IMG/VR virus record: IMGVR_UViG_3300042868_002089 | Source of the DNA: an uncultured virus (IMG/VR IMGVR_UViG_3300042868_002089) | Lineage: Duplodnaviria > Heunggongvirae > Uroviricota > Caudoviricetes | Strand: one strand, 5' to 3' | Length of the DNA stretch: 64,000 bases | Shown here: in pieces, positions 2,801-22,866 of the stretch | How the letters are laid out: each line of letters begins with the position of its first letter | Position numbering within the stretch: the stretch's first letter is position 1 | Position numbers and translations under genes: made by a program | Notes under the pieces: model-generated | The model's database searches: none | What the model saw: the letters and a program-made list of their open reading frames with translations, nothing else | What the model was told of the DNA's origin: nothing

Positions 2801-2808
2801 GTGTGTTC

Positions 2809-4350
2809 CTAATAGTATGCGTACGACTTGCGGCGGAAGTAATCAGGGTCATCCTTCGCATCCGTGTTCAAAGTGATAAAACCGCCTTGCCTAAAGCGTA
2901 GCAGTGCTTGTGTGGTCGTGTCCACGAAGTCATCGTGCTCCCCAACTGGGAAAGCCGCCATCTCTTCGATCACTTCTCGTGCCCAGCGTGTGTCCGGTGC
3001 CCAGACCATGCCAGAGGCAAACAAATCAGCCACTGCGTTTAATCGTACCATCTTGTCGTTGCCGCGGCTAGGATTTGTTTCCTGCACGGGAATGTCCATA
3101 GCCCGCAGTTCTTGGATCAGCGGAGCGCCTGCGGCCTTCTTCTCCACGATGAACGCATCTGGCTCCCACTCCTTGTAGTGCTTAAGCGCAACTTCTTTAA
3201 GTTCAGGGAACGTCATGCGGTCTTTGAACGCATCAAGCAAGATAATCTGCGTCGCGTCCTTCTCCTCTTCGTTGAAGAACACGCCCCATGTGGTGCAGGC
3301 TGAATAGTCAGAGTTGTTCTTGGTCTCAAACGCCGTATCCCACGACTGAATGACGTAATCGCACTGCGGCGGGTCTTCAGACTCCCATATGCGCCACATT
3401 TTGCGCCCAACGATGGCTGAGTTCTCGCTTGTGGGCTGCTGCATGTACTGCGCGTTCCAATACCTAGGCTCAATGGACGCTTTAGTCGCTTTAAGTGCGG
3501 CGAGAGGCCACTGCTCTGGCCACAAGGACTTCTCCGTGTCCTGATCTTCGTTGAGAATGGCGGGAAGCTCCACGATTTCCCATGGAATAGCCTCGGGGTT
3601 GCGAGCTTGGTAGTCAATCAAGCGCCCAGTCAGGTCTAACAGCGACCATCTGGTCATAATCACAATGATCGCACCACCGGGCATCAAGCGTTGCAAGGGG
3701 CCGGTTTGGAACCAAGACCATGCAGTGTCAAAAGCAAGCCGTGAGTTGGCTTTTACGTCTTGTTCTGAATGAGGGTCATCAATGACGAAAAGATCAGCCC
3801 CACGGCCAGCCAGTGCGCCACCAACACCAGCAGCATAATACTGACCACCAGCAGAAGTCGACCACTTACCGGCAGCTTTCTGATCGTCTGCGACCATTGT
3901 TTGGGGGAAAACTTCACGATACTCCTCCGATTCAATCAAGTTACGCACTCTACGGCCAAAGTCTTCAGACAAACCAGCGGTGTGGGTGCCCATGATGATC
4001 TTCTTATTAGGGTATTTACCTAGGAAGTACGCAGGGAACAGGTATGAGGAGAACTCTGACTTACCCATACGTGGCGCGATGTTGATAATCACGCGCTTTT
4101 TCTTGCCCTCGACCACATCTGTGAAGATTTTGGCCAGTTTCCTGTGGTGCGGCCCGATCTTAAAGCCCGGATAGACGCTCTGAGCGAACCCCAACATGTT
4201 TGTTTTGGCCGCCTGCAAGCTGGCGCGGGCTTCACGCATCTCCAAGTCTTGGAAGAGCTCCATCTTTTCTGCCAACGTCATGTGCGGCAGTGCCTTGGCC
4301 ATTGCTTCTAGCTCAAGTTTGCTAAGAGTTGTGAACTTTTCAGTCTTCAT
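2809..4350 (-). CDS. terL: Terminase large subunit
   Basis: Walker A-like APRMGKS, Walker B-like FVIDDP, RNase H-like nuclease SWDTA...DYSA and HDDFVDTTTQAL. Confidence 0.95.
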   Translation of the reverse strand: MKTEKFTTLSKLELEAMAKALPHMTLAEKMELFQDLEMREARASLQAAKTNMLGFAQSVYPGFKIGPHHRKLAKIFTDVVEGKKKRVIINIAPRMGKSEFSSYLFPAYFLGKYPNKKIIMGTHTAGLSEDFGRRVRNLIESEEYREVFPQTMVADDQKAAGKWSTSAGGQYYAAGVGGALAGRGADLFVIDDPHSEQDVKANSRLAFDTAWSWFQTGPLQRLMPGGAIIVIMTRWSLLDLTGRLIDYQARNPEAIPWEIVELPAILNEDQDTEKSLWPEQWPLAALKATKASIEPRYWNAQYMQQPTSENSAIVGRKMWRIWESEDPPQCDYVIQSWDTAFETKNNSDYSACTTWGVFFNEEEKDATQIILLDAFKDRMTFPELKEVALKHYKEWEPDAFIVEKKAAGAPLIQELRAMDIPVQETNPSRGNDKMVRLNAVADLFASGMVWAPDTRWAREVIEEMAAFPVGEHDDFVDTTTQALLRFRQGGFITLNTDAKDDPDYFRRKSYAYY

Positions 4351-4921
4351 CTGACTTTTCTTCAGACACGTCGACTACATCGATCACACCCATGAACCTA
4401 TTGAGCTTGTCTTTGATCCGCGCTTCAAGCTCAACGTCTGACATTTCGGTCTTCTTGACCTCGACTCGCTCCGTGAACAGCGCAACCTCAGTGACTTTAC
4501 CCAGCATGTCTAGCGCTTTGAGCCGTATGCGCGCATCTGGGTGGTCTACTTCTTCTAAGATCTTAGCTACGGCAAAACCGCGCAGTTCTTTGGCTTGCTC
4601 CACAAACGCCCAATCGTAGGCGGTAAGCATTCCCACCAAATGCTGGACTGCCGCTGGCGCTTTAATGTTAGCAAGTGCTTGCTGTGTGTTCTGTGGCGGC
4701 TGGCCGGTGACTAAAGATGCAAAAGATTGCCGCGCTGCTTGGGCGTCTGCCTTGGACTCTACTGCTTCGTCGTCTAGCTCCAGCTCTTTAAGCCAGTCGG
4801 CAGTTTTGACTTGTGCATCAATGATGGTTGCAGGCTCAGCCTTATCAAGCGGCAAAAGCGTAGCCGCAGTCATATCGACTACGTCTGGGTGAAATTCGCC
4901 GTGAATAAGATGTTCTAGCAT
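4340..4921 (-). CDS. terS: Probable terminase small subunit (start reassigned to ATG at 4921)
   Basis: Immediately upstream of and overlapping terL; RLKALDMLGK motif typical of TerS; the longer upstream extension runs through promoter/terminator sequence. Confidence 0.7.
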   Translation of the reverse strand: MLEHLIHGEFHPDVVDMTAATLLPLDKAEPATIIDAQVKTADWLKELELDDEAVESKADAQAARQSFASLVTGQPPQNTQQALANIKAPAAVQHLVGMLTAYDWAFVEQAKELRGFAVAKILEEVDHPDARIRLKALDMLGKVTEVALFTERVEVKKTEMSDVELEARIKDKLNRFMGVIDVVDVSEEKSDED

Positions 4922-4950
4922 TTTTGCGTAGGTTAGTGCTGGCGTCGCAC

Positions 4951-4999
4951 TTGTTGCCTCGTTGCAGTTAGTGTACACTTCTTTTTGGCAATGGTGCAA
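4951..4999. promoter_or_regulatory. Bidirectional sigma70-like promoter built on the palindrome AGTGTACACT
   Basis: Plus: TTGTTG(4951-4956)-17bp-TACACT(4974-4979). Minus: TTGCAC(4999-4994)-18bp-TACACT(4975-4970), pointing at terS. Confidence 0.55.
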
Positions 5000-5070
5000 A
5001 TTTTTTGTTCTGTTGCTTCTCCTTGAGGTTCGCCTCCTTGCGCCCCGGCTAAACACCGGGGCTCTTTTTT
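4986..5070 (+). ncRNA. Putative anti-Shine-Dalgarno small RNA
   Basis: Own predicted promoter; single-stranded TTGCTTCTCCTT (5013-5024); GAGG-TTCG-CCTC hairpin (5025-5036); intrinsic terminator; complementary to early/middle RBSs. Confidence 0.6.
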
Positions 5071-5073
5071 ATT
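5042..5073 (+). terminator. Rho-independent terminator
   Basis: GCCCCGG-ctaaaca-CCGGGGC followed by TCTTTTTTATT. Confidence 0.8.
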
Positions 5074-5078
5074 GGCCA

Positions 5079-5094
5079 TGTCAAACGTTGGACA
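5079..5094. promoter_or_regulatory. Operator-like 16-bp imperfect palindrome (copy 1)
   Basis: TGTCAAACGTTGGACA; reverse complement TGTCCAACGTTTGACA matches copies at 13540 and 22894. Confidence 0.55.
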
Positions 5095-5287
5095 TTGGTC
5101 TTTGAAATTTTTTATAGTGGGGTGGGGGGTGGCGTTTTGGCTTTGAGATTTTGAAAAATTGGATTTGCGGGTGAGAAACAGTGTTTATGTGGACATGGTG
5201 CACCTACCCATTTTAGGGGTCATGGGGGTATGGTGGGGTCAACAGAACCCCAAAATAGGTACTTTCGTTTCTCATTCAGACCCCTCA

Positions 5288-5296
5288 TGGTAAAAT
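5288..5296 (+). promoter_or_regulatory. Early promoter, extended -10
   Basis: TGgTAAAAT upstream of the first plus-strand gene; predicted start about 5303, coinciding with the base of a hairpin. Confidence 0.55.
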
Positions 5297-5331
5297 AGAG
5301 GTATCGGTTAGGGAATCAGTCCTAGTCGATG

Positions 5332-5349
5332 CGGGGAGATTCCTCCCCG
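5332..5349. repeat. GGGGAGA-type palindrome copy 1
   Basis: CGGGGAG-attc-CTCCCCG. Confidence 0.8.
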
Positions 5350-5382
5350 ACAACAAACCATAGTCAACTCAAGGAGATCATC

Positions 5383-5832
5383 ATGACTAAATCAACTCTC
5401 ATCAATGTTACTTACTCTCAGTTTGCAGAGGGTGTCGGTCGCACAGATCGCATGACACTCGAAGCAAGTCTTGCATGGCACAAGGCATATGTGAAGCTCG
5501 ACAAGGAATCACAGTCAGCATGGCGTGACGACTTTGTGCTGAACTATGTTGTGGGTAAGCTCGATACCACAATGAAGCAAGCTGAGATTATTTATGCTCA
5601 GACTCGTGTCGAACGCACAGCCGAGCACGAGAAGGCTGTCAATGCGGGTTGTGCTAAGTTCCGCCACCACATCAGCCGCCCTGAGAAATCAGACGGCAAG
5701 AAGGTTGTGGTCAAGTTCACTCGTGAGCAGGTTAGTGCTTGCGACAATGCGCTTGCGGCTTTCGAGGCTGAGACACTTGCCGAGCAGATCAAGATGTTGC
5801 GTGCTTACCTCGCTACTCTCGAAACTAAATAA
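5383..5832 (+). CDS. Early hypothetical protein (first early gene)
   Basis: 149 aa MTKSTLIN...; RBS CTCAAGGAGA at 5368-5377. Confidence 0.85.
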   Translation: MTKSTLINVTYSQFAEGVGRTDRMTLEASLAWHKAYVKLDKESQSAWRDDFVLNYVVGKLDTTMKQAEIIYAQTRVERTAEHEKAVNAGCAKFRHHISRPEKSDGKKVVVKFTREQVSACDNALAAFEAETLAEQIKMLRAYLATLETK

Positions 5833-5835
5833 TCT

Positions 5836-5852
5836 CGGGAGATTTCTCCCCG
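5836..5852. repeat. GGGGAGA-type palindrome copy 2
   Basis: cGGGAGA-tt-TCTCCCcg. Confidence 0.75.
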
Positions 5853-5891
5853 ACACCGCAAGGGCGAGTCTCTTGCGGTGTTTCATTCTTT
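5853..5891 (+). terminator. Terminator-like hairpin
   Basis: ACACCGCAAG-9nt-CTTGCGGTGT followed by TTCATTCTTT. Confidence 0.55.
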
Positions 5892-5920
5892 GTCCAATCA
5901 ATAATCTCAAGGAGATCATC

Positions 5921-6103
5921 ATGCAATTCTCAGCACCCTACACACCCATCGAGTTCTACGATGCGAGCTTCAACACAGACTCAAAGCACACATTGTGGTG
6001 CGTTCGTGTCACAGGTGCTACTCGTTACGAGCCAATGCCTATGCCCAAAGGTCATTGCGTTGCGCCACCTGACGATAGCGATCTCGACAACATCTCGTTC
6101 TAA
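5921..6103 (+). CDS. Early hypothetical protein
   Basis: MQFSAPY... 60 aa; RBS CTCAAGGAGA 5906-5915. Confidence 0.75.
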   Translation: MQFSAPYTPIEFYDASFNTDSKHTLWCVRVTGATRYEPMPMPKGHCVAPPDDSDLDNISF

Positions 6104-6174
6104 GGAAACTCTACAAGCATAGCGTGCTGTGCTTGTGGGGCAATCCTGCCCACATAACTCTCAAGGAGAAAATC

Positions 6175-6351
6175 ATGACACCAACCAAAGTCATCTCACA
6201 CATCGTGTGTTCACTCGCACTCGTCACATCCATCATCGTGGGTTTGTGGTGCATGAACGAATACGGCGTTGCCCCATTGTGGGCATTGCTCACGCTTGGC
6301 GGATCGTTCTTGTTCGGCACTCAACTCATGCTCATCATCACAGGAGAATAA
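6175..6351 (+). CDS. Small two-TM membrane protein
   Basis: MTPTKVISH...; two hydrophobic stretches; RBS CTCAAGGAGAA. Confidence 0.75.
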   Translation: MTPTKVISHIVCSLALVTSIIVGLWCMNEYGVAPLWALLTLGGSFLFGTQLMLIITGE

Positions 6352-6353
6352 CC

Positions 6354-6602
6354 ATGTACCAACTGTTCAATCAATACCGCACCAAAGAAGTAGGCATCGT
6401 CAAACTTGGCGCTCAAGAGTATCACCTGCAATACCACTACCCCAACGGAGGCAGCAACTACGTTGTCTACGTCTTCAGCAAGAACCTAGCCGAGAGAGGG
6501 CGTGTATTCAGCACAGACGATGCGTTCTTCGCATGGCTCGAAGCCCAGCCCAAGCAACTGAATTTACCTTTCGGGGAGACATCTCCCCGAGATCATCAAT
6601 AA
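6354..6602 (+). CDS. Early hypothetical protein
   Basis: MYQLFNQY...; RBS AGGAGAA. Confidence 0.75.
   Translation: MYQLFNQYRTKEVGIVKLGAQEYHLQYHYPNGGSNYVVYVFSKNLAERGRVFSTDDAFFAWLEAQPKQLNLPFGETSPRDHQ
6571..6590. repeat. GGGGAGA-type palindrome copy 3
   Basis: TCGGGGAGA-ca-TCTCCCCGA. Confidence 0.85.
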
Positions 6603-6631
6603 TCTACATTATTGAGGCAAAAAACCAGTCA

Positions 6632-6938
6632 CGGCCAAATGTCCAACACTACAACCCGTGAACTAAGTTCCGTGTAACCCCGCAACCCGCATGAACAGTA
6701 GCGTTCCGCAAAAACTGTCCTATCTATCTATCTATTTAATATATATTTATATATATAGATGTGTCTATTAGGGGGTGCTCATTCTTTTTCTTTGGGACAC
6801 TTGCTTTTTTAAGTTGGCGTTAGCTTCCCAGAAAAAAGATAGATAGTTCGCACACTTTTCGTGCTAAGCTAGCATTGGTGCGGGTTCAGAACCTACACGG
6901 AAATTAGTCACAGCCCTTTAGTGTTGGACATTTGGCCG
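6632..6938. repeat. Long imperfect inverted repeat around an AT-rich core (candidate origin)
   Basis: Perfect 20-bp outer IR (6632-6651 / 6919-6938), degenerate arms of about 100 bp, TATC repeats and an A/T-only tract at about 6733-6757. Confidence 0.8.
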
Positions 6939-6965
6939 ACACTCAATTTTGGAGTCAATAATCTC

Positions 6966-7670
6966 ATGTACGAAACATACCTCAAACTCAGCGCAAACGA
7001 GCTTCACAACCGCTTAACCGAGCGCAACCTGCACCCAGCCGAGATCGAAAGAATAAAAAACGAGGTGCAATCTTTGAAAGAAACCCTGCGTGTCTCACGC
7101 ATCACACGCACACAGCGCAAGGCAGAGTGGGACAAAGTACTGCAACCCCTGCGCTACGAGATCAATAATGCCAAAGTTGGCATGAGATACGGCGGGGAGA
7201 AAGTCTCCCCAGAACGACAACACGCCTTCAGCGAGTACGTACGCATCATGGAGAAGCTGCTTGCCATGCTAGATGCCCCATTCAAAGCGCTAGACCACAC
7301 GCCCATACAGATCGCTCGTGACAAGGGACTGCCCAACGATGGCGAGCATTGGACTGACTGGATACCTGCAAGGGTCAAGGAGAAGGTAACGGATCTATTC
7401 AATCAAATCGAGGTAGCACCAAGGGGCAAGCGTAAGACGCCCTTCCAACGCACGATGCTCCCTCATCAGCACGAAACAGCCAAGGTGAGATTATTGACCA
7501 AGACAAAGAAAGAGATGGAAACGCTCGAACGCAAGATCGCAATCAACGCATCAGACGAGCGCACAGCCAAGCTCAAACAGATGCAACGAGCCATCAAGAT
7601 TATTGAGGCTCTGGACAAGAACGAAGCTGTACCAGCCACATGGACAAAACTCAACATGGGGGAGGACTGA
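6966..7670 (+). CDS. Hypothetical basic, helical protein
   Basis: MYETYLKLS... 234 aa; RBS GGAG. Confidence 0.85.
   Translation: MYETYLKLSANELHNRLTERNLHPAEIERIKNEVQSLKETLRVSRITRTQRKAEWDKVLQPLRYEINNAKVGMRYGGEKVSPERQHAFSEYVRIMEKLLAMLDAPFKALDHTPIQIARDKGLPNDGEHWTDWIPARVKEKVTDLFNQIEVAPRGKRKTPFQRTMLPHQHETAKVRLLTKTKKEMETLERKIAINASDERTAKLKQMQRAIKIIEALDKNEAVPATWTKLNMGED
7194..7210. repeat. GGGGAGA-type palindrome copy 4 (intragenic)
   Basis: GGGGAGA-aag-TCTCCCC. Confidence 0.75.
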
Positions 7671-7688
7671 CTATCAACATTCTTTCTT

Positions 7689-7719
7689 TTGGGGAGATAT
7701 CTCCCCAAGGGAATTCCCT
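7689..7719. repeat. GGGGAGA-type palindrome copy 5 plus adjacent 12-bp palindrome
   Basis: TTGGGGAGATATCTCCCCAA (perfect 20 bp) then AGGGAATTCCCT. Confidence 0.85.
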
Positions 7720-7781
7720 GTGCTCGGCACTTGGGCAACGCTGTGCACCATCCGCAACCTGCCTAATCAAGGAGAAACAAA

Positions 7782-7970
7782 ATGAAAAGAGAACCACACA
7801 GCAAGTACACCCACGCCATCGTGGAAGTCAAACTAACTGTCACATGGAACGATGGCATCGTTGAGGACTTAACGCCTCACCTACCGCCTGAGCTTCAGTC
7901 GAACATCGAGGAGTACCTCGTTGAGATGGATGACCTGCGTACGCAGAACCCTGCCAACTATTTTCTGTAA
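7782..7970 (+). CDS. Early hypothetical protein
   Basis: 62 aa; RBS TCAAGGAGAAACAA. Confidence 0.8.
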   Translation: MKREPHSKYTHAIVEVKLTVTWNDGIVEDLTPHLPPELQSNIEEYLVEMDDLRTQNPANYFL

Positions 7971-7981
7971 GGAGAAACAAA

Positions 7982-8398
7982 ATGAAATATGAAACGCTAA
8001 TGGAAGCGCAACTGAGCGCCTACCCTGACAGCATCAAGCTGACTGACCTACAGATGATGGATACCTTACGCACCGCCACACCTGACTGGCTCAGCTATCG
8101 CAAGCTCAAGGAGTGGCGGTACTACTCTGACTTGAGCGATGCGTTGAAGGAAGACGAGTGGCTTGTCAATCGTATGTATGAGACCTCGGTGGATCTGCAA
8201 AGTGAAGAGGCACGAGCGCAATGGGCGAGGAACGCCTTCATCTATCGGGCAGAGACGCCCGAAGGGTTCTTCTACGCCTGTTGCAAACAACCTGACGGCA
8301 AATACAAGTTCGTTGGGTTCAGGTACGGACTCGAAGACAGCGAGTACGCATCAGGGTTCGGTGGCATGAATTACACACCAGAAGGAGAAAGCAAATGA
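7982..8398 (+). CDS. Early hypothetical protein
   Basis: 138 aa; RBS AAGGAGAAACAA. Confidence 0.8.
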   Translation: MKYETLMEAQLSAYPDSIKLTDLQMMDTLRTATPDWLSYRKLKEWRYYSDLSDALKEDEWLVNRMYETSVDLQSEEARAQWARNAFIYRAETPEGFFYACCKQPDGKYKFVGFRYGLEDSEYASGFGGMNYTPEGESK

Positions 8399-8679
8399 GC
8401 AAGACAGCAGACATTTTCGGTAAGTCATACGCCGTATATGAACCAGAGGTGGACATAACAGGCAAATGGAATCTACGCAGGGTAGATAAGACACGCACCG
8501 ATGGTGGGTGGGAAATCATGGAGGTGTACTACGACAGCAAGGATCGCCCCGTTGGGGCGTGTGCGTTCTCGGTCTCTAAATCAGAGAGCGCTAACTTCAC
8601 AGATGTGATCGGGATGCTTCAGTCAGCGCAAGCCAAGCCTGTACTGAAGTTGGCGAAAGATGGCAAGTTCATTATTTAA
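8395..8679 (+). CDS. Early hypothetical protein
   Basis: 94 aa; RBS AAGGAGAAAGCAA; ATGA overlap. Confidence 0.8.
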   Translation: MSKTADIFGKSYAVYEPEVDITGKWNLRRVDKTRTDGGWEIMEVYYDSKDRPVGACAFSVSKSESANFTDVIGMLQSAQAKPVLKLAKDGKFII

Positions 8680-8690
8680 GGAGAAAGCAA

Positions 8691-8915
8691 ATGACTAAAG
8701 CCAAACACAAGACCAACATCCAGTTGGTCACAGACCTCATGTCGCACTCACAGCAGGGCGCTCTCATGCAGGCGTTCATCATCGAGGCGATATCCAAGTA
8801 CTCAGAACAAACCAAAGTCTCACCGCCTTGGTCTAACCAAAGCTTCATCAGCGAGGCCGCATGGCGTGCGTGTGCTGACGAGGCGCTCGAAGCAATCAAC
8901 AACAGGAGTAAGTGA
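8691..8915 (+). CDS. Early hypothetical protein
   Basis: 74 aa; RBS AAGGAGAAAGCAA. Confidence 0.8.
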   Translation: MTKAKHKTNIQLVTDLMSHSQQGALMQAFIIEAISKYSEQTKVSPPWSNQSFISEAAWRACADEALEAINNRSK

Positions 8916-8916
8916 A

Positions 8917-9156
8917 ATGAGAGTAGTAAAAATCCGTGTGTTCGGCACATACAAACAGCCGTTCAACAATGCGTTCAAAGCAGACTGTATTGTCCTGCCC
9001 GCTGAGTTATCAGACTCGATGCGTGATGAGGTGTTACGCAAGCATGACGATTTGTTCTTTGTGTTCACCTCTGGTGATCCGATCGTGGGTGAGCACCACA
9101 CCTTCGAGGTGTATTCGTTCGATGTAATTAGTGAAGAGGAGGTAGCCCTCGCCTGA
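8917..9156 (+). CDS. Early hypothetical protein
   Basis: MRVVKIRVFG...; RBS AGGAG. Confidence 0.7.
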   Translation: MRVVKIRVFGTYKQPFNNAFKADCIVLPAELSDSMRDEVLRKHDDLFFVFTSGDPIVGEHHTFEVYSFDVISEEEVALA

Positions 9157-9189
9157 GCAACAGGCGTGTTCGTTAGTGTGTTAGTTCAA

Positions 9190-9208
9190 CGGGGACACCA
9201 TGTCCCCG
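9190..9208. repeat. GGGGACA-type palindrome copy 6
   Basis: CGGGGACA-cca-TGTCCCCG upstream of the amidoligase gene. Confidence 0.75.
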
Positions 9209-9245
9209 ATGTGTATTTATTTTTTTATAACTCAAGGAGAAGTAT

Positions 9246-11315
9246 ATGTTTACATTTACAAAGTTCGTTGTGGTTGATTCTGTTGACCGCACCACAGGTA
9301 TGCTGCTTGTGTCGTTCAGCAACAAGTACGCTTTGTACAACGCCAGTCGGCGTCGTGTTATGACTGATGTGATGCGTGCCGACAGTGGTGTTGACCCTAT
9401 CACTCTCATCAATAACGCTCAGTTTGGTATCTGGTTTCATGGCAGTAACTATCGCATGAGCCCTGTTCATGCAGTCGAGACGCTGTCGTTTCCCGATGCG
9501 CTTCTGTACGCCAGTGACCGCTACGATATCCACCAGATGATGCGTGCTGTGCTTCGGCCTGCCAGTGCTTCAGATGCGCGTATCCACCCAGTTGATCGCC
9601 GTCTTATCAATCAGCGTGTCGAGGTCATCGTTGATAAGTACATAGCCAAGCAGACAGGCAATGTGGCAACCATCTCGCCACACGCTAGGTTCAAGGGCGG
9701 GTACTACTACCTTCCGTCTACACTCCTTGCCGCACGCAATGCGTTCCGTGAGTTCGGTCACTTGGTTGCTCGTGCCAAGGCAGATGATCCGTCAGCCGAC
9801 TCCGATGCACTGCGTGAGGCGTTCTACGAGCTTGACAATCGCTATCACGACTTCGATACGCATATCAACAGCGCGTTCTGTGCTCTCGAGGACTTCGGTC
9901 TTGGCATTGTGCACTGTGACTGCGGTCACTACGAAAGCGATGAGAACACGCACGATGTGCGTAACGACACATGGTGTGACTCGTGCTTCGATGATGACGC
10001 TGTGTTCTGCGAGGATGAGAACGAGTACTGGCCTCGTGATGACTGCTACTACTCTGAGTCTCGTGATGCGTACTACTCGTATGATCGTGATGGCGAAGAT
10101 GATGACGATGATGAAGATCGCAACCAACCGATCATGTCGTACTCAACCAATGTGCTCGATGTTATTGGCAATGAGTCAGGCATCAGGTCGTCTCACTTCG
10201 GTGAGTTCACGATGGGCATCGAGCTTGAGATGACTTCGGGTGATGACTACAGCGAGTCAGCCGCTGAGTCTGTGCGTAGCCGTCTCGGTTCCTCATACTG
10301 CATCATCAAGAGTGACGGCTCGCTTCCATCCAATGGCTTCGAGGTCGTGACTTCACCGCATGGTCTTGCCACGCACATCGAGAAGTTCAAGACTTGGGAC
10401 ATTGACCCAGCCTATCGTGCATGGAACACAGGCAAGTGCGGTATGCACGTACACATTGACTCTCGTGCGTTCACTCAGATGACGCTTGGCAAGTTCTTGA
10501 TGTTCATCAACAGCAATGGCAATGTCGACTTCATTCGCAAGATTGCAGGTCGCCATCCATCTGTCGATGACCAAGCCCGTAGCTACTGCGCCGCTGAGCA
10601 CCAGTCCATCCTTGTCAACCCCAAGCAGGCTGTCAAGGGCAAGTCGGGTGAGCGCTATCGCATGGTCAACCTGTGCAATCTCGGTAGCCGTGAGGCTATA
10701 CGCTTGGGTCTTAGCATGGACAACAGCTACAACGGCAGGTACAACACTGTCGAGCTTCGCATCTTCCGTGCTTCGCTCAAGAAGGAACGTCTGCTTGCAC
10801 AGATCGAGTTCACTCATGCGTCTGTCATGTTCTGCCGTGTCGCATCGTGGCGTGATCTCAACGGCACATCGTTCGTCAAGTGGCTCAAGACTGTGGCAGG
10901 TCAGTACCCTGCGCTAGTCAAGTGGTATGGCGTGCGTGCTGTGCATGGTGCATCTAAGCAACCCTCTGCCCCTGCCGAGGTTACTTGCACTGACACTGTG
11001 CCCCCTGTTGTTGCCTTTACAACCCGACGCCCTCACGGGTGTGACCACGAGTATCGGATGGAGATAGCGCATGAGGATGGCGCTGGTATACGTGCCTACG
11101 CTACCCGACACGGGCTGTACTTCACATACTTCAGGGTGATCGGCTTGCAGTTGTGTGTGTTCCCGTACAGCGGCAACGATCAGCAGATCGGTGACGAGGA
11201 TGTGATCTACGTGCGTGACAACGATGTGTGGCGTCTGCAAGACGACGACTTCAACTCATTGATTCAGGGTCAGAGCCCTGTGCCTGCCGATGTTGATGGC
11301 AATGCTTCCGTTTAA
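9246..11315 (+). CDS. Putative amidoligase (COOH-NH2 ligase, Amidoligase_2-like) with Cys-rich N-terminal module
   Basis: GIELE, KSDGSL, GFEVVTSP, CGMHVH, RYRMVN, TVELRIF motifs; HCDC and WCDSC Cys pairs. Confidence 0.8.
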   Translation: MFTFTKFVVVDSVDRTTGMLLVSFSNKYALYNASRRRVMTDVMRADSGVDPITLINNAQFGIWFHGSNYRMSPVHAVETLSFPDALLYASDRYDIHQMMRAVLRPASASDARIHPVDRRLINQRVEVIVDKYIAKQTGNVATISPHARFKGGYYYLPSTLLAARNAFREFGHLVARAKADDPSADSDALREAFYELDNRYHDFDTHINSAFCALEDFGLGIVHCDCGHYESDENTHDVRNDTWCDSCFDDDAVFCEDENEYWPRDDCYYSESRDAYYSYDRDGEDDDDDEDRNQPIMSYSTNVLDVIGNESGIRSSHFGEFTMGIELEMTSGDDYSESAAESVRSRLGSSYCIIKSDGSLPSNGFEVVTSPHGLATHIEKFKTWDIDPAYRAWNTGKCGMHVHIDSRAFTQMTLGKFLMFINSNGNVDFIRKIAGRHPSVDDQARSYCAAEHQSILVNPKQAVKGKSGERYRMVNLCNLGSREAIRLGLSMDNSYNGRYNTVELRIFRASLKKERLLAQIEFTHASVMFCRVASWRDLNGTSFVKWLKTVAGQYPALVKWYGVRAVHGASKQPSAPAEVTCTDTVPPVVAFTTRRPHGCDHEYRMEIAHEDGAGIRAYATRHGLYFTYFRVIGLQLCVFPYSGNDQQIGDEDVIYVRDNDVWRLQDDDFNSLIQGQSPVPADVDGNASV

Positions 11316-11331
11316 TTCAACAACAACCATC

Positions 11332-11358
11332 GGGGACAACCTGTCCCCATTCTTTTTT
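11332..11358. repeat. GGGGACA-type palindrome copy 7 with T tract
   Basis: GGGGACA-acc-TGTCCCC attctttttt. Confidence 0.75.
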
Positions 11359-11375
11359 ACCTCAAGGAGTTTATT

Positions 11376-12485
11376 ATGTGTTTAATCATTACAGGTCAGT
11401 CTTCCAAAGTTCGTTCAACCCTGCTCGACACGCACGGGTTACTCAGCGACATCTTCACATCCAACCCTGACGGCATTGGGTTCATGTACGGCACAGCCAA
11501 GGGGCTCAAGGTCACCAAGTCCTTGCCCAAGAATCTCGGCGATGCTTCTGCATTCATTCAGCGCTTGCCTCAAGACGATCGTGAGATTGCTATCCACTTC
11601 CGCTGGACTACACACGGCAAGACCGATATGCTCAACTGCCATCCATACGATGTGATCCCTGGCTTCATCGCCATGATGCACAACGGCGTACTGCATACAG
11701 GCAATGCCGCTGACACGTCCAAGTCTGACACATGGCACTTCATCAAGGACTACTTGCACAGCGCTGTGTCCTCTGCCCCTGACCTTGTGTATGACGCAGG
11801 CTTCGTTGCTATGCTCGAGGAGTTCATCGGCAACAACCGCTTCGTGTTCATGAATGGCGAGGGTCGTATGCAGCACGTCAACTTCGATCAGGGTATCGAG
11901 CACGATGACTTGTGGTTCAGCAATACCTATGCGTGGACACCATCACGCCTGATCCCAAGCTACAAGAGCACGACTGCACTCAAGTCGTACAAGTACACCA
12001 GTGCATACGGCGGCTACATGGATGACGAGTACGACGAGATGTATGACTACAACGCTAGCTTCAACGTCAAGCCCCGTGGTATCAGCGCACACAGCGCCAA
12101 CTACGACGAGACAGCGTACGACTTTCCTGATGACGAGGATGGCTTCGTTCAGCCAACACCTGAAGACCTTGCTGTTGCACTGACCGAGGCTGACGTTGAG
12201 ACGATGGAGATATGGCTTGACCAGATGCCTGCGTACACGCTGACTACTGTGCTCCACTTGTTCCAGCCTGAGCCACTCACGTACACACATCGTGACGACT
12301 TGTGCGTTGCCGAGCAGGGCATCTACGATATGCTGATGGAGGGCGATGCGTCTGGTCTTATCAGCATGGCTACCAAGTCGTATGGTGCGGTCAGTACTAT
12401 CGCTGAGGTCGTGTGTTACTACCTGCAATGGGATGTGCGCAAGCCTGTGTCATTCAAGCCAACCTTGCCTGCACTGTTGACTTGA
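11376..12485 (+). CDS. Class II (Ntn) glutamine amidotransferase
   Basis: N-terminal MC, NPDGIG, HFRWTTHG, NCHPY, HNG, SDT motifs. Confidence 0.9.
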   Translation: MCLIITGQSSKVRSTLLDTHGLLSDIFTSNPDGIGFMYGTAKGLKVTKSLPKNLGDASAFIQRLPQDDREIAIHFRWTTHGKTDMLNCHPYDVIPGFIAMMHNGVLHTGNAADTSKSDTWHFIKDYLHSAVSSAPDLVYDAGFVAMLEEFIGNNRFVFMNGEGRMQHVNFDQGIEHDDLWFSNTYAWTPSRLIPSYKSTTALKSYKYTSAYGGYMDDEYDEMYDYNASFNVKPRGISAHSANYDETAYDFPDDEDGFVQPTPEDLAVALTEADVETMEIWLDQMPAYTLTTVLHLFQPEPLTYTHRDDLCVAEQGIYDMLMEGDASGLISMATKSYGAVSTIAEVVCYYLQWDVRKPVSFKPTLPALLT

Positions 12486-12491
12486 TTTGTA

Positions 12492-12517
12492 GTGGGGGGC
12501 TTGCCCCCCACATTTTT
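12492..12517 (+). terminator. Rho-independent terminator
   Basis: GTGGGGGG-cttg-CCCCCCAC-ATTTTT. Confidence 0.7.
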
Positions 12518-12528
12518 AAGGAGGATGT

Positions 12529-12795
12529 ATGAAACTTTTTACTTCTAAGCTTGACCGAATACCCAACGACAAAAAGGAGCCGCTGTACACATTGGAAGAG
12601 ATAGCCGACAGGCTTGGCGTTGAGCACAAGGTGCTGAAGAGCCTTATTAGCAGGAGTAGTAGGGTGTGCCCATCACCTAAAGCTGTGCTTATAGCCAGAT
12701 CACATAGTCAGATGACTAAGAAGTTATACATGCTGTCTGAATACAAAGCATGGTTTAAACAACGGCAAGACAGTATCAAAGGAGAAAGCAAATGA
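12529..12795 (+). CDS. Small HTH DNA-binding protein (excisionase/MerR-like)
   Basis: LYTLEEIADRLGV pattern. Confidence 0.55.
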   Translation: MKLFTSKLDRIPNDKKEPLYTLEEIADRLGVEHKVLKSLISRSSRVCPSPKAVLIARSHSQMTKKLYMLSEYKAWFKQRQDSIKGESK

Positions 12796-13274
12796 GAAAG
12801 ACAGGGTGGGATCCACCTGCGCTGATGCAGGATGACCACGGAGGGCTAAGCAGATGGTTTGCTACACGCCCTGATGCACGCTATGTTTTTATTAAAAACC
12901 AAAGGAGAAAGCAAATGAAATACAAAATGGAAATAGTCATGTCCTACTGGCAGACAGTAGTGATCGAAGCCGACAGCCGTGCCGATGCTGAGAACAGGGC
13001 GCTCTACGAGTTTGACATCAGCAAGGCACGCATGGGGGATGGTGAGGTGTATGACACAAAGATTGTCTATGAGCCTACGCCAGAAGAGAATGCCTTCTTG
13101 GAAGCATACCTTCGGAATGTTGCCTCTGCATCACGAGACGAAGTGCTGATGTTCCTTGAATACGTGGTCGATGGGGGCATAAACAAAGACAGCTATCACT
13201 GGTGGTCAGGCGTGGAAGACGCATGGCTTATGTGGAAAGACGCTAAGAAATTTTTACAAGGAGAAATCAAATGA
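12792..13274 (+). CDS. Hypothetical protein with a second in-frame start at 12915
   Basis: Two identical RBS-start units AAGGAGAAAGCAAATG in the same frame. Confidence 0.75.
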   Translation: MRKTGWDPPALMQDDHGGLSRWFATRPDARYVFIKNQRRKQMKYKMEIVMSYWQTVVIEADSRADAENRALYEFDISKARMGDGEVYDTKIVYEPTPEENAFLEAYLRNVASASRDEVLMFLEYVVDGGINKDSYHWWSGVEDAWLMWKDAKKFLQGEIK

Positions 13275-13453
13275 AAGTATCAGACACCACAGCGCTACAC
13301 CTGCGCTGTATCGAGGCAGACCTGCGGGACTACCTTATGAACCCTGCCGAGTACCGAGTCACGCACCTTGAGGACATTCATGTCTTGTTGCTCGAGGTCA
13401 TGCGCACACTTGGCGTTGCACCTACAACCGAAGGAGAAAACAATGATGACTAA
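13271..13453 (+). CDS. Hypothetical protein
   Basis: 60 aa; RBS AAGGAGAA. Confidence 0.75.
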   Translation: MKVSDTTALHLRCIEADLRDYLMNPAEYRVTHLEDIHVLLLEVMRTLGVAPTTEGENNDD

Positions 13454-13535
13454 CTGGGAAAAGTTCGAAAGAATAGTACTTTTGTTGGCGGTAATTGTAC
13501 TTATTGCCGATATTTTTTATTGGCGAGGGTATTGA
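13443..13535 (+). CDS. 30-aa single-TM peptide (missing from ORF track)
   Basis: MMTNWEKFERIVLLLAVIVLIADIFYWRGY; RBS AAGGAGAA. Confidence 0.65.
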   Translation: MMTNWEKFERIVLLLAVIVLIADIFYWRGY

Positions 13536-13561
13536 CTTATGTCCAACCCTAGACAAATAAT
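13532..13561 (+). promoter_or_regulatory. Sigma70-like promoter with operator copy 2 in its spacer
   Basis: TTGACT-18bp-AATAAT; TGTCCAACCCTAGACA at 13540-13555. Confidence 0.6.
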
Positions 13562-13585
13562 GTACCCCCAAGGAGAAATAACTAA

Positions 13586-13795
13586 ATGAAACACACACCT
13601 TACGATACGGGCAAGGTCAAGATTGGCTTGCTCTACACACCCCCTACCCCCATACCTACGCCCGAGGAGACTTGGGTGCAATCTATCCTGTTAGGCGACA
13701 AGCAGGGATGGTCAGAAGATACACGCACTTGCGTGCTTTCCGTAGCGGCTCTCGCCGCAATTTTTATTGTCATGCTACTAACAGGAGGAATCTAA
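13586..13795 (+). CDS. Small membrane protein
   Basis: PYDTGKVKIG N-terminus, C-terminal TM helix; RBS AAGGAGAA. Confidence 0.75.
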   Translation: MKHTPYDTGKVKIGLLYTPPTPIPTPEETWVQSILLGDKQGWSEDTRTCVLSVAALAAIFIVMLLTGGI

Positions 13796-14449
13796 ATGCC
13801 TGACATTCAAACTGCCCTGCGCTCTGCGCTAACTAAGACTCTGCAAGCTTGGGATGATGACGAGGTGGCACCCCCTCCTCCCTCTGCCCAACCAGTGTCA
13901 ACCTCTTCTTCTCCCTCAACTTCAAACCAAAAACCAGCCATGATTAATCAACACAAAATCACAAACAACGTCTCACGCGAAACCTTCAGCTACATCAAGA
14001 ACAACCCCGGCTCCACACGTCTGGAGATCGTCGAAGCGCTTGGGCACAAGGGCTTTGCCAAAGGGTCAGTGTCATCATTGATAGCGCAGATGCGCAGAAG
14101 CTACATGGTTCACGAAACCAACGGCCTGTGGTACGCAGATGTGGATGAGTACGCACCTATCAAGAACGTGAACTACAAGCGGAAAAAGAAAGCCAAGACA
14201 CAGAAGAAGCCTGCGACAGGTATCGGTGCGCTGTTGAAAGCCAAGCTAGAAGCTACGCCTGTGCCTACGCCTATGCCTAGCCAAGATGCGCTTGATGCTG
14301 CAGCGTACGCTATGAGTGGGGTTGAGGTTGCGCCCAAACGCATGGTGACCCTTGTACGTACAAAGACACCCGAAGACATTATTGGCAACATGACTGTGTA
14401 TCAGGCACGTGAGTTGTATGTGCACTTGAAGCAGATGTTTGGAGGTTAA
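13796..14449 (+). CDS. Hypothetical protein, possible winged-helix domain
   Basis: 217 aa; TFSYIKNNPGSTRLEI...SVSSLIAQM pattern. Confidence 0.7.
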   Translation: MPDIQTALRSALTKTLQAWDDDEVAPPPPSAQPVSTSSSPSTSNQKPAMINQHKITNNVSRETFSYIKNNPGSTRLEIVEALGHKGFAKGSVSSLIAQMRRSYMVHETNGLWYADVDEYAPIKNVNYKRKKKAKTQKKPATGIGALLKAKLEATPVPTPMPSQDALDAAAYAMSGVEVAPKRMVTLVRTKTPEDIIGNMTVYQARELYVHLKQMFGG

Positions 14450-14450
14450 G

Positions 14451-14660
14451 ATGGACATACTAGCGTTTCCACAAGGCGATAAAGTCACTACCGCAATTTC
14501 AATTGCAAACAGTCAAGGCATGACCCTGCGTGACTACTTTGCGGCTAAGGCTATGCAAGCAATTGTTAGCAAGGAAGTAAGCCACGTATCGTGGGTTGAT
14601 GAATACGCAAAGAACGCATACAAGATGGCAGACGCAATGCTGAAAGCGAGGGGAGCATGA
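14451..14660 (+). CDS. Conserved phage protein
   Basis: GMTLRDYFAAKAMQ...AYKMADAMLKAR motif common in phages. Confidence 0.8.
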   Translation: MDILAFPQGDKVTTAISIANSQGMTLRDYFAAKAMQAIVSKEVSHVSWVDEYAKNAYKMADAMLKARGA

Positions 14661-14908
14661 AAGAAATTAACATCACAATTTATACCAAGGCAAACTGCCC
14701 CAACTGCATAACAGCCAAGCTCGTACTGGGTTCGCTCAACTTACCATTCAATGAGGTGGACATCGAGGTGGGCGACCGCCTTGGCAACCTGCTCAAAGAG
14801 TTCCCTGATGCGCGTCAGATGCCGCAGATATTCTTCAACGACCAACGCGTGGGTGGCTTGGCAGGACTACAAGCCGCGCTTAAACAACTTGGGAGTGTGC
14901 CGCTATGA
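14657..14908 (+). CDS. Glutaredoxin
   Basis: CPNC active site, MPQIF, VGG. Confidence 0.9.
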   Translation: MKEINITIYTKANCPNCITAKLVLGSLNLPFNEVDIEVGDRLGNLLKEFPDARQMPQIFFNDQRVGGLAGLQAALKQLGSVPL

Positions 14909-15291
14909 CTACAGAAAAAGATTGGGTAACAAAGGCAGGCTACCGCGCTGTGGTGTGCGCTACCCCCATGGGACACCGCTGTGGGTACGTGGCAATACCG
15001 GTAGGGCATAAGCTTTACGGCGTTGCGTATGATGATGCTGACGTTGATGTACATGGCGGCCTGACCTTTGCAGGGGGCAACGGCAAATACCCTGTTGAAG
15101 CTGCCGACTTGTGGTGGTTCGGCTATGACTGCGCACACCTTGGTGATGCGCGTGACCCTGAGTTGATGGCCCCCGAGTACAAAAGCATAAGCGCGTTGTC
15201 GTTGCGGTTCGAAGGTGATGTCATTAGATCACTGGACTTCTGCATTGATGAGTGTGAATCGCTGGCTACGCAATTAAAGGAGGTTGTATGA
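14905..15291 (+). CDS. Conserved phage protein
   Basis: CGYV, VHGGLT, WWFGYDCAH motifs. Confidence 0.8.
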   Translation: MTTEKDWVTKAGYRAVVCATPMGHRCGYVAIPVGHKLYGVAYDDADVDVHGGLTFAGGNGKYPVEAADLWWFGYDCAHLGDARDPELMAPEYKSISALSLRFEGDVIRSLDFCIDECESLATQLKEVV

Positions 15292-15548
15292 CCGACAAAC
15301 CCAAAACACTCAACCCTTGGGAAGAACTTGCACAAGTAGACAGGCCGAGTATTTTTGCAACCGACCAATACTTTCGTGCGCGTAACCCAAGCAATCAACT
15401 CAAAAGCAAAGAAGACCTAGGCTATAAACAGTTCGGCACGTTCACGCGAGCCAAAGAACGACAGCCAAACAAACACGAAGGAGTTTTAACAGATGCCAAG
15501 ACCAAAGCCCCCCGCCCCCCTAAAGGTACGATACGTACGTTTAAGTGA
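15288..15548 (+). CDS. Hypothetical protein
   Basis: 86 aa; RBS AAGGAGG; ATGA overlap. Confidence 0.65.
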   Translation: MTDKPKTLNPWEELAQVDRPSIFATDQYFRARNPSNQLKSKEDLGYKQFGTFTRAKERQPNKHEGVLTDAKTKAPRPPKGTIRTFK

Positions 15549-15714
15549 CAAGCAGTGGATAATTTTTAAACAGCTTGGCGGACTCGATTGGTTGCGTGAG
15601 TTGCTTGACAAGAAAGCGCCCATGCCAAAGAAGTACTACGACAACGAGCTTGAGCGGATACGCAACCCAGCCGATGCCGCCTTTTTAAACAGAAGGAGAG
15701 ACGAGAATGACTAA
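15493..15714 (+). CDS. Small putative DNA-binding protein (ribbon-helix-helix-like)
   Basis: MPRPK...VRLSDKQW...GGLDWLRELLD; RBS AAGGAG. Confidence 0.65.
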   Translation: MPRPKPPAPLKVRYVRLSDKQWIIFKQLGGLDWLRELLDKKAPMPKKYYDNELERIRNPADAAFLNRRRDEND

Positions 15715-15988
15715 GCCACCCATACCGACAAGCGACCAGCTTGATCTGTTTCACGAGACCACGCGCAAGCATGTACAAGCGCTTACAGCCAACGATGTGC
15801 AAGTAGCGGGCACTCACTACAAGGGCAAGGCCATACAACCATGGGACTACATCGTGGGCAACAACCTTGGCTATCTTGAAGGCAACATAGTAAAGTACGT
15901 GTCCCGCTGGAAGGACAAGGGCGGTGTCGATGACCTGAAGAAGGCGCGTCACTACTTAGACAAATTAATAGAAACACAGGAGAAATGA
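15707..15988 (+). CDS. DUF3310 / SaV-like protein
   Basis: QVAGTHY...IQPWD...GNIVKYVSRWKDKGGVDDLKKARHYL. Confidence 0.85.
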   Translation: MTKPPIPTSDQLDLFHETTRKHVQALTANDVQVAGTHYKGKAIQPWDYIVGNNLGYLEGNIVKYVSRWKDKGGVDDLKKARHYLDKLIETQEK

Positions 15989-15989
15989 C

Positions 15990-16217
15990 ATGACCAAAGA
16001 CATTGAAGAAACACGCGCACTCAACAACAAACGCGATCAAGTGGAAGCTGCAGTAGAGATTCTCAAAACCGCAATGGGCACGCAGAAAGTAGACATCGGC
16101 ATATCTGCGCTCATGAGCTACCTGTGCATGCTTGCGTACCACAACGGCTACCCGCTTGACAAGATGGTTGCATACATGGCAACGCTATATGAAATGCATG
16201 GAGCGAAAAACAAATGA
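15990..16217 (+). CDS. Hypothetical protein
   Basis: 75 aa; RBS AGGAGAA. Confidence 0.7.
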   Translation: MTKDIEETRALNNKRDQVEAAVEILKTAMGTQKVDIGISALMSYLCMLAYHNGYPLDKMVAYMATLYEMHGAKNK

Positions 16218-16474
16218 CCTCAGTAGACAAACTCAAGAAGAAAGACTGGGTCGCGTTGCGGCTCTTGTACCTCATACTGGCTTCAGACCCGAGCGCGGCG
16301 GTGTTGCCTGATGTGCAGAAGACAGTTGATCTGTACGGCATGCGCACCATACTGAAAGCGTTTGAGTTGCTCAACCGAGAGATTGCCAACGACGGCAAAA
16401 CTTTTGGGCATCCAGAGGTTAACCTGACAAGGTATGTTGAAGCGAATGGGGGTTACGATGGCTTCGACACCTGA
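16214..16474 (+). CDS. Hypothetical protein
   Basis: 86 aa; ATGA overlap. Confidence 0.7.
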   Translation: MTSVDKLKKKDWVALRLLYLILASDPSAAVLPDVQKTVDLYGMRTILKAFELLNREIANDGKTFGHPEVNLTRYVEANGGYDGFDT

Positions 16475-16769
16475 ATCAAAAGTAAAAGCGAACGTACGGA
16501 AACTACTTGATGAACTCAAAATCTACCACTTCATGCCCCCCGCTAATGGTTTTGGCCGAGCGGGTATACCTGACATCATTGGCTGCATGGACGGACAATT
16601 CATTGCCATCGAATGCAAGGCCGGCAAGGGCACAACCACAGCTCTTCAAGACAGAGAACTCGAAGCCATCCGCAATGCATGGGGTATTGTGTTCATTGCC
16701 CGTGAGCACAACCTTGATGAGCTGAAAACACTACTGGAGCTCAAACGATATGAAATACAAGGACTTTGA
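16458..16769 (+). CDS. VRR-NUC endonuclease / Holliday junction resolvase
   Basis: TPESKVK...GIPDII...AIECKAG...TALQ. Confidence 0.85.
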   Translation: MASTPESKVKANVRKLLDELKIYHFMPPANGFGRAGIPDIIGCMDGQFIAIECKAGKGTTTALQDRELEAIRNAWGIVFIAREHNLDELKTLLELKRYEIQGL

Positions 16770-17046
16770 CGGCTCAATGTCTGAAGCGGAGCTACACAGC
16801 AGGGTGACGGCCATGTCAGACGAAGAGCAAGCCCACTTCAAGCTACTGATCCACAAACTAGTGATGTGCTATGGCGAGGGCAAAGCACAAGGCGTGGTCA
16901 TCGTTGGCCGCGCTGAAGACCAAATAGCAGGAGTCGTTACCCTAAACTGTAACGAGATGGAGGCGTCGCAGCTCATGCTGGCGGCAAACGATTTTTTCGG
17001 CTTTCTAAACTTGCTAGACGCACCACCAAAAGAACACTTTAACTGA
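16750..17046 (+). CDS. Hypothetical protein
   Basis: 98 aa in operon. Confidence 0.7.
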   Translation: MKYKDFDGSMSEAELHSRVTAMSDEEQAHFKLLIHKLVMCYGEGKAQGVVIVGRAEDQIAGVVTLNCNEMEASQLMLAANDFFGFLNLLDAPPKEHFN

Positions 17047-17056
17047 AGGAGAAGCG

Positions 17057-17275
17057 ATGACACAAGATGAAATTTTAGAGGCGCTGCACAAAGTTGTGGC
17101 AGAGAACACGCACTACACAACGTGGACTGTATCAACCCCGCACTTGGTTCTTTTGGTCAACTTAGCCATTGAACAGGAGCGTGAGGCGTGTGCCGACATT
17201 GCTGAGAACTGGAACAGCAATGGGATGCCTAGAACTGGAGTGGCAAATGAAATCAGAGCAAGGGGGCAAGCATGA
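17057..17275 (+). CDS. Conserved phage protein
   Basis: EREACA...IRARG motif; RBS AAGGAGAAGC. Confidence 0.75.
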   Translation: MTQDEILEALHKVVAENTHYTTWTVSTPHLVLLVNLAIEQEREACADIAENWNSNGMPRTGVANEIRARGQA

Positions 17276-17514
17276 CTGACTGGACACCCGAAGAAGACGA
17301 AGCTTTCAACGATGTTGAAAAGCACAGCAACCTTGGCAAGCAGATACTGCGTGACATGGGACAGCCGTATGTGTACGCACCCAAGCGTGAGTGGGTGGGG
17401 CTGACGGATGTAGAGATCGTGGACATTATGGATGTGGAGTTAACTACGCAAAACACTGAGCACTTTGCACTCTGCCAAGCCATTGAAGCCAAACTCAAGG
17501 AGAAGAACACGTGA
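17272..17514 (+). CDS. Conserved phage protein
   Basis: WVGLTD...AIEAKLKEKN motif. Confidence 0.75.
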   Translation: MTDWTPEEDEAFNDVEKHSNLGKQILRDMGQPYVYAPKREWVGLTDVEIVDIMDVELTTQNTEHFALCQAIEAKLKEKNT

Positions 17515-19773: not shown

Positions 19774-19781
19774 GAGAAGCA

Positions 19782-20749: not shown

Positions 20750-20757
20750 GGAAATTT

Positions 20758-21042: not shown

Positions 21043-21044
21043 CC

Positions 21045-21284: not shown

Positions 21285-21299
21285 TAGCTTGGAGAAGCA

Positions 21300-22859: not shown

Positions 22860-22866
22860 AAGGGGG

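Follow-up and report, generated by a model that had tools for sequence, protein, structure and literature searches.

Genome Layout

The stretch of DNA analyzed here, called the window throughout, is the 64,000-nucleotide record IMGVR_UViG_3300042868_002089 of an uncultured virus (Caudoviricetes), and our subject is a block of about 9 kb within it, the early block, that is depleted of short palindromic words. The window is close to a complete genome of an uncultured freshwater podovirus-like phage. The public sequencing runs that contain this sequence are lake, freshwater, and drinking-water metagenomes, and the closest cultured relatives of its large terminase (terL) are the pelagiphages HTVC027P and HTVC023P, at ~50% identity. 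A near-identical phage record for the window was not found. The genes form two convergent arms (Table 1). The rightward arm (5329-28282) opens with ~17 small open reading frames (ORFs), mostly without known families, and goes on to the replication genes. The leftward arm starts at 5056 with a putative small terminase gene (terS), for which there is no family match, exits the window at base 1, and re-enters at 64000 to run down to 28405. This second part carries the head, tail, fiber, and lysis genes, as well as those for a “DNA ejection protein” and an SLT-transglycosylase protein. Adjoining these two is a giant protein of 2914 amino acids in which LPD38, a domain of the “polyvalent proteins” of phages and conjugative elements, is the only recognized domain.

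Palindrome Depletion in the Early Block

The original prediction for this DNA was that about 9 kb of its early region lacks CCGG, and complete counts bear this out, with an effect that is stronger than first noted. The window has 146 CCGG sites, none of which lies between 5056 and 14007, and the resulting gap is 8951 bp long where the next largest is 2353 bp. The same prediction put the GGCC sites of the region at about five. They are indeed few, but there are six of them in 5060-14004 (5074, 6633, 6934, 8855, 9556, and 10030) out of 230 in the window, the one at 5074 having been missed and the one at 8855 having been placed at 8854. The depletion of CGCG, GGNCC, CCSGG, and GCWGC had been overlooked. 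Of 186 CGCG sites in the window, only three are in the block (9577, 9872, and 13976), which opens gaps of 4846 and 4104 bp, as against 1407 bp for the next largest. Going by the site density elsewhere in the window, the block should hold 23.7 CCGG, 36.4 GGCC, and 29.7 CGCG sites, and from its own Markov model 11.0, 25.4, and 30.0, respectively. A dinucleotide model predicts ~22 GGNCC, ~8 CCSGG, and ~28 GCWGC, as against the 0, 0, and 4 observed.

The guanine and cytosine (GC) content of the block is 50.3%, vs. 51.2% over the 64 kb of the window, and the early-gene codon fractions for GCC, GGC, CGC, and GCG are similar to those of the replication genes. We made 1000 synonymous-codon shuffles over 17 curated early ORFs, whose starts are our own curation, while keeping both protein sequence and codon usage. 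The shuffles gave 11.5 ± 2.8 CCGG (lowest 2, observed 0), 27.7 ± 3.8 GGCC (lowest 15, observed 6), and 38.3 ± 4.6 CGCG (lowest 24, observed 3). Since not one of the 1000 was as low as the observed counts, codon usage, which had been named in advance as a possible cause, is excluded. The same shuffling of the replication (B) and late (C) blocks leads to observed/expected ratios of 0.52-0.85 for these three words. In the late arm the ratios are 0.76-0.85, which speaks against a genome-wide avoidance of CCGG, GGCC, and CGCG. By codon shuffling, the late arm also has ratios of 0.48 for TCGA and 0.67 for GATC, but both words are only mildly low with Markov normalization. When all 136 strand-symmetric 4-mers are ranked in the block, the two lowest z-scores belong to CGCG and GGCC, CCGG is the sole word with no occurrence, and the near-absent words are almost all palindromes.

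Edges and Tiers of the Depletion

The left edge of the depletion is a sharp step at the junction between terS and the first early gene. Restriction-word sites are at full density from the first bases of terS, with 13 CCGG, 23 GGCC, and 20 CGCG in 1-5059, and then there are almost none. The junction carries sigma-70-like sites at 5089-5118 and 5269-5296 (+). The final two CCGG sites are in a GC hairpin with a 7-bp stem (5042-5062). In phage tf, the left end as published starts with CCCCGG, at least in the excerpt available, and its likeness to the hairpin may be a coincidence.

On the distal side, recovery is graded. Alignments to relatives are lost at ~5.1-5.9 kb and pick up again at 13442, in a region where a terminator-like hairpin occupies 13483-13512 and a promoter-like site 13532-13561. 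CGCG, CCGG, and GGCC return at 13976, 14007, and 14123, which is ~0.5 kb past the alignment restart at 13442/13443. In five genomes (the window and its relatives G002, G003, G004, and G005), the density of depleted words is far lower in the early part than in the middle, and lower there than in the late part. In the window the early, middle, and late counts of GGNCC are 0, 5, and 115, compared to Markov expectations of 9, 32, and 110. For GCWGC in G002 they are 0, 1, and 137 (expected 17, 28, and 173), that is, one site in 23 kb. The replication arm at 14007-28282 holds 6 GGNCC vs. ~45 expected, along with CCGG at about half the late density, and no GGWCC occurs in the window before 26330. The late arm has ~125 native CCGG sites. 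A few other words are avoided over the whole genome: there is a single CCWGG (11658) in the window vs. ~125 expected, with 1 and 3 sites in the relatives G002 and G003 (62-66 kb), while the whole window has 0 TGATCA vs. 17 expected and 2 GGCGCC vs. 15. The words thus sort into three tiers, avoided over the entire genome, over the full rightward arm, or in just the early block.

Recurrence Among Relatives

In IMG/VR, a search with terL matched 600 stretches, of which 597 were confirmed as relatives. Eighty loci were kept, and the 31 of these with enough upstream DNA were examined, with junction positions that may be off by tens of bases. In the stretch 1-5 kb upstream of terL, CCGG is absent in 27 of the 31 loci, occurs once in another, and is found 7-21 times in the remaining three (L068, L072, and L074); downstream, all 31 have 2-5 CCGG per kb. 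We then flagged any word at or below 25% of its late-region density, provided that at least six sites were expected, in the window and in 23 relatives whose early DNA spans about 4 kb or more (leaving out the near-duplicates L045 and L077, and L012 and L038, which are too short). Flags were raised in 49 of 360 palindromic tests, vs. 2 of 2871 non-palindromic ones. The depletion is specific to palindromes.

CCGG is flagged in the early block of 20 of the 23 relatives, but otherwise the flags vary. Several relatives have flags for CGCG and GGCC, L008 for GCGC, L004 for ACGT, and L076 for ACGT, AGCT, GATC, GTAC, and GGCC. The early block of G003 is purged of ACGT, AGCT, CCGG, GATC, GGCC, and GTAC, and that of L008 also of GCGC. 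For many relatives, the early block has no DNA-level alignment to that of the window. In four of them (L010, L021, L024, and L025), tblastn finds no match (E ≤ 1e-4) to the 17 early window proteins tested, and the CCGG counts are respectively 1, 0, 1, and 0 where 35, 31, 17, and 16 are expected from late density. At the other extreme, L004 has a terL that is 98% identical to the window's, but its early block has no ACGT and keeps CGCG. Over 5848 aligned bases, none of the 13 ACGT sites of the window is kept in L004, and at six of these sites the difference is a lone synonymous substitution. The GGCC sites at 6633, 6934, and 10030 are common to both. Judging from these sequences, the depletion follows position, not descent. 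A depletion that is real, codon-independent, palindrome-specific, and recurrent at the same position with differing genes reflects selection against restriction sites on the early block alone. Compared with the remaining genome, this block is subject to far stronger selection against Type II restriction sites.

Genes and Elements of the Early Block

When 18 early ORFs are compared with Pfam, Amidoligase_2 is the only match, and neither an anti-restriction nor a nuclease family is found. No family named A1 or A2 appears in PHROG/Pfam profile searches of 17-18 early ORFs, and no RNA polymerase family is found among the rightward ORFs (39 with PHROGs, 40 with Pfam). The first early gene (5383-5832) encodes a basic protein with an isoelectric point (pI) of 8.8, and there is no Pfam match to an Ocr-type DNA mimic in first position. 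An Rfam scan of 4800-15000 gave no match at E ≤ 0.1.

The gene at 6966-7670 has 27 distinct homologues with 30-87% identity. The AlphaFold model of its protein is confident and all-helical, with a predicted local distance difference test (pLDDT) score of 89.5. Foldseek finds no match to it in the PDB at E ≤ 0.001, the BFVD matches are all uncharacterized phage proteins, and the ESM Atlas has no usable match. A profile search against PDB sequences returned only designed pentatricopeptide repeat (PPR) proteins through one 23-residue stretch, which we consider spurious. The modeled protein is a candidate for a clade-wide early function. Just upstream is a non-coding element (6603-6965) whose core at 6680-6758 is 82-86% identical in relatives with otherwise unalignable early DNA. 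A TTGGACA motif is present in its arms and again at 5088, and the element may serve as an origin or as a region of divergent promoters. The GGCC sites at 6633 and 6934 lie in its inverted arms, and they probably survive because of the constraint on these arms.

The Amidoligase_2 gene and its neighbor are present in 5-8 of 25 relatives. Both proteins of the pair (9246-12485) have long acidic stretches and a net charge of -25 each. The neighbor, whose protein starts with MCLIITG, has no Pfam match. We take it to be a candidate class-II glutamine amidotransferase, also in view of papers pairing both genes. The parts of those papers at hand describe such pairs in OM43 phages, phiEco32, and LUZ24-like phages, and their functions are only speculative there. 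Elsewhere in the block, a 26-nt ribosome-binding-site/start region (AAGGAGAAAGCAAATGA...) is found before early ORFs in five copies (8382, 8678, 12779, 12902, and 13258, all +), and the ORF at 12792-13274 contains the one at 12902 as an internal second copy. The five copies suggest cassette-like early genes with a common translation start.

Table 1. Positions of the features discussed in the text.
Feature	Position	Strand	Remarks
Portal	185-2800		leftward arm
Large terminase (terL)	2809-4350		leftward arm
Putative small terminase (terS)	4340-5056	-	first gene of leftward late arm, directly upstream of terL; named from position only
Palindrome-purged block	5057-14006	.	0 CCGG, 0 CCSGG, 0 GGNCC, 3 CGCG, 6 GGCC, 4 GCWGC
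Divergent intergenic junction, terS/first early gene	5057-5382	.	site density drops from full to zero
Early genes, 15 curated ORFs	5383-13453	+	mostly family-less; content highly variable among relatives
Non-coding element, 363 bp	6603-6965	.	AT-rich core (CTAT repeats, TATATA runs); perfect 19-nt inverted arms 6633-6651, 6920-6938
Conserved early protein, 234 amino acids, pI 9.6	6966-7670	+	sole early gene across most of clade
Amidoligase_2-domain protein, 689 amino acids	9246-11315	+
MCLIITG-start protein	11376-12485	+	neighbor of amidoligase; C-terminal half acidic
Right border of variable block	13442-13585	+	alignments to several relatives resume at 13442/13443
Replication arm	14007-28282	+	glutaredoxin, DNA polymerase A, PD-(D/E)XK nuclease, SNF2 helicase, primase-helicase
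Giant late protein, 2914 amino acids	28405-37149	-	LPD38 polyvalent-protein domain, residues 2622-2800

Probable Early Exposure of the Block and Competing Explanations

The explanation that we favor for the whole, and hold to be rather probable, is that host endonucleases meet the early block before any phage counter-measure acts, likely because this block is the leading end of the entering DNA. According to the accessible parts of the relevant papers, sites matter only when they are inside the first-entering region. The genome would be linear with ends at the terS/early junction, and the early block, as its leading end, would enter and be expressed first and would thus meet host Type II endonucleases before the counter-measure takes effect. 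The replication arm would come next and be partly exposed, while the late arm would arrive or become accessible only once protection is in place. We infer the polarity of entry, the position of the genome end, and the existence and identity of a protecting function. A more specific version, in which we have limited trust, is that entry is gated and polar, and that the three tiers record when each class of host enzyme is neutralized. CCWGG and TGATCA would then be the words avoided everywhere, and GGNCC (GCWGC in G002) those of the 23-kb rightward arm. The tier confined to the early 9 kb would include CCGG in nearly all relatives, with CGCG, GGCC, ACGT, GATC, AGCT, GTAC, and GCGC differing by lineage. 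A broad Type II inhibitor would be encoded in the early block, the prime candidate being the gene at 6966-7670. If this is true, the neutralizing function is the same unsolved one as in T5.

Since headful packaging would void such avoidance, the footprint predicts fixed ends. By analogy with LUZ24-like phages, a physical genome end is predicted at 5057-5382, and ends at this position would explain the step in site density there. Twenty public runs were found, all as Logan contigs, and four were examined; such contigs cannot show ends or copy number. With that limit on copy number, there is no second copy of the early segment in the window. The starts of relatives' contigs near the junction were considered as termini, as 12 of ~70 such contigs start 680-1040 bp upstream of terL, but they map scattered over window positions ~5077-5376 and are interpreted as breaks in the assemblies where the variable block begins.

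Several observations weigh against early exposure at a leading end. Contigs in three public runs bridge the terS/early junction, and the contigs yielded no molecule ends. The “direct terminal repeat” of G003 is a 69-bp overlap inside late genes, and is thus a sign of circular assembly only. At ~30% identity, Aaphi23 and Listeria phage B054 are among the nearest terL relatives from cultured phages, and we take both to be headful packagers. Headful packaging, with its random ends, would deprive position-specific avoidance of its point, as stated in the sections of the Murciavirus paper that we draw on (PMC12455610). In the ORFs scanned, which do not include some small ones, there is no anti-restriction, methyltransferase, or base-modification family. 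The three most distant loci (L068, L072, and L074; GC 52-58%) are without the CCGG purge, and the relatives are not phylogenetically independent, so that counts across them are not independent trials. The purged block also matches a hypervariable mosaic block to within ~0.5 kb, and in raw 4-mer frequencies it deviates more than any other segment of the window (r 0.44-0.79 to the others). This overlap means that exchange with a distinct gene pool may contribute to the pattern.

An alternative that we regard as unlikely is that the footprint reflects order of need and not order of entry. All the DNA would enter together, and the late arm would be shielded physically by co-injected virion proteins, for which the LPD38 protein is a candidate, or else cuts in it would be tolerated. 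Only the DNA that is naked and transcribed at once would have to be site-free, and an early anti-restriction ORF would be unnecessary, in keeping with the lack of any known family of this kind among the early ORFs. The giant polyvalent-domain protein is encoded beside the SLT-transglycosylase protein and the “DNA ejection protein,” and DarA/DarB of phage P1 are cited as co-injected protectors in the portion of the literature available (PMC12455610). However, the graded increase from early to middle to late suits progressive exposure better than an all-or-none shield, and the CCGG sites of the late arm would shred unshielded DNA.

It is quite improbable that the footprint is instead a matter of mosaic origin, with the block drawn from an exchanged pool of cassettes that has its own composition and comes from phages avoiding these words genome-wide. 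The hypervariability of the block, its alignment breaks, and its deviant raw 4-mers are what such an origin would leave. Between 5100 and 14600, lake and drinking-water assemblies (runs X1-X3 and X6) show many alternative joints that skip 70-6000 bp, which indicates that early cassettes are gained and lost among co-occurring strains. However, the flags are palindrome-specific, the homologous genes of L004 and the window purge different words through synonymous changes, and conserved replication genes are purged as well (of GGNCC in the window and of GCWGC in G002). In addition, the block is not foreign DNA by its Markov-normalized signature: for non-palindromic 4-mers, block and replication arm correlate at 0.56-0.58, and the two halves of the replication arm correlate with each other at 0.57. 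Cassette exchange is real, yet on its own it is unable to yield a palindrome-specific and lineage-specific loss in homologous genes.

Self-avoidance is more improbable still. Here an early phage nuclease with restriction-like specificity would degrade host DNA, and the phage DNA resident at the time would have to lack its sites, as Davison proposed for T5 A1 in the part of that work available. The loss of CCGG across nearly the whole clade is as expected from one conserved phage enzyme. However, the 18 early ORFs include no nuclease family, the remaining purged words differ among close relatives, which fits changing host enzymes better, and a late arm with 125 CCGG would still need protection on arrival. 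Finally, chance, codon usage, or amino-acid composition is refuted: the raw CCGG expectation does fall from ~24 to ~11 because Gly and Ala are scarcer in the block than in the late genes, but no shuffle comes down to the observed counts, the codon fractions are like those of the replication genes, and the pattern is found in dozens of relatives.

Comparison with Known Systems

Early exposure of a leading segment has precedents, and its principle is already known for T5-like and T7-like phages from the published passages at our disposal. It had been stated at the outset that first-entering DNA is depleted in T7 and T5. T5/BF23 and Murciavirus are fair precedents, but the wording is too loose for T7. 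According to those passages, Type I and Type II systems restrict T5 and BF23 only via sites in the first-step-transfer region, and the function that protects these phages is unidentified. That region is described there as ~8-10 kb long with small, mostly unknown host-takeover genes and no tolerance for sites, like the block described here. As in T5, sites are absent from the segment and present in the remaining genome. The differences are that our phage is podovirus-like and not a siphovirus, has ~65 kb instead of 122 kb, and yields no families named A1 or A2. The purge also spans many 4-5-bp words, differs among close relatives, and grades into the replication arm, and the repeat-rich element at 6603-6965 sits 1.5 kb into the block and not at its distal border.

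In Murciavirus (Autographiviridae; Nucleic Acids Research, 2025), a Type I motif has an effect only if it lies in the variable region that is injected early, and the authors speak of restriction selection at a sub-genomic scale, as far as the excerpts go (PMC12455610). The sequence footprint of the window would fit such a dependence on the leading region. There, the Type I motif was established by experiment, whereas here a Type II-like palindrome footprint is read from sequence alone. Compared to T7-like phages, neither a phage RNA polymerase nor an Ocr family is found among the ORFs scanned, the late arm is on the opposite strand, and transcription of the late genes runs counter to the direction in which the DNA presumably enters.

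The two-arm layout is that of the LUZ24-like phages (tf, PaP3, and LUZ24), with which the window is compared by architecture alone. In phage tf, as described in the text available, the left arm holds early and replication genes with an amidoligase and a glutamine amidotransferase, and the right arm begins with packaging genes, followed by those for portal, head, and tail. It also has 186-bp direct terminal repeats at the physical ends, where the arms diverge. Regional avoidance of sites is not reported in the passages seen on LUZ24-like phages.

Classical genome-wide avoidance of restriction sites in phages was reportedly covered in BMC Genomics in 2018 (PMC6286503); such avoidance is seen here for CCWGG and TGATCA, but the main finding is regional. 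Surveys of site avoidance mostly assign one score per genome. Because the signal here sits in 14% of the DNA, a whole-genome avoidance score would miss most of it. In conjugative plasmids, the leading region is likewise depleted in restriction targets, judging by the portions consulted (PMC12455610; PMC11541004; PMC13478746), although these are another kind of element, with single-stranded transfer by conjugation. What is new here is the setting in an abundant freshwater clade, the many-word Type II footprint with its fast turnover, and the three-tier graded profile. Such a footprint predicts the leading end at entry, the limit of the early block, and the restriction specificities of the host, and it narrows the search for anti-restriction functions to a few early genes. 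Since close relatives purge different words, the clade is also a natural series for the speed at which restriction drives DNA change.

Other Features of the Late Arm

The tail-fiber gene at 48287-49885 (-) has long collagen-like Gly-X-Y repeats, and these repeats account for much of the CCGG, GGCC, and GGWCC total of the window. Two genes away is a 2OG-Fe(II) oxygenase gene (50881-51420, -), whose product may be a prolyl hydroxylase for the tail fiber. Another late gene (40254-42731, 825 amino acids) includes seven tandem copies of a 60-69-nt unit at 40820-41373 (-).

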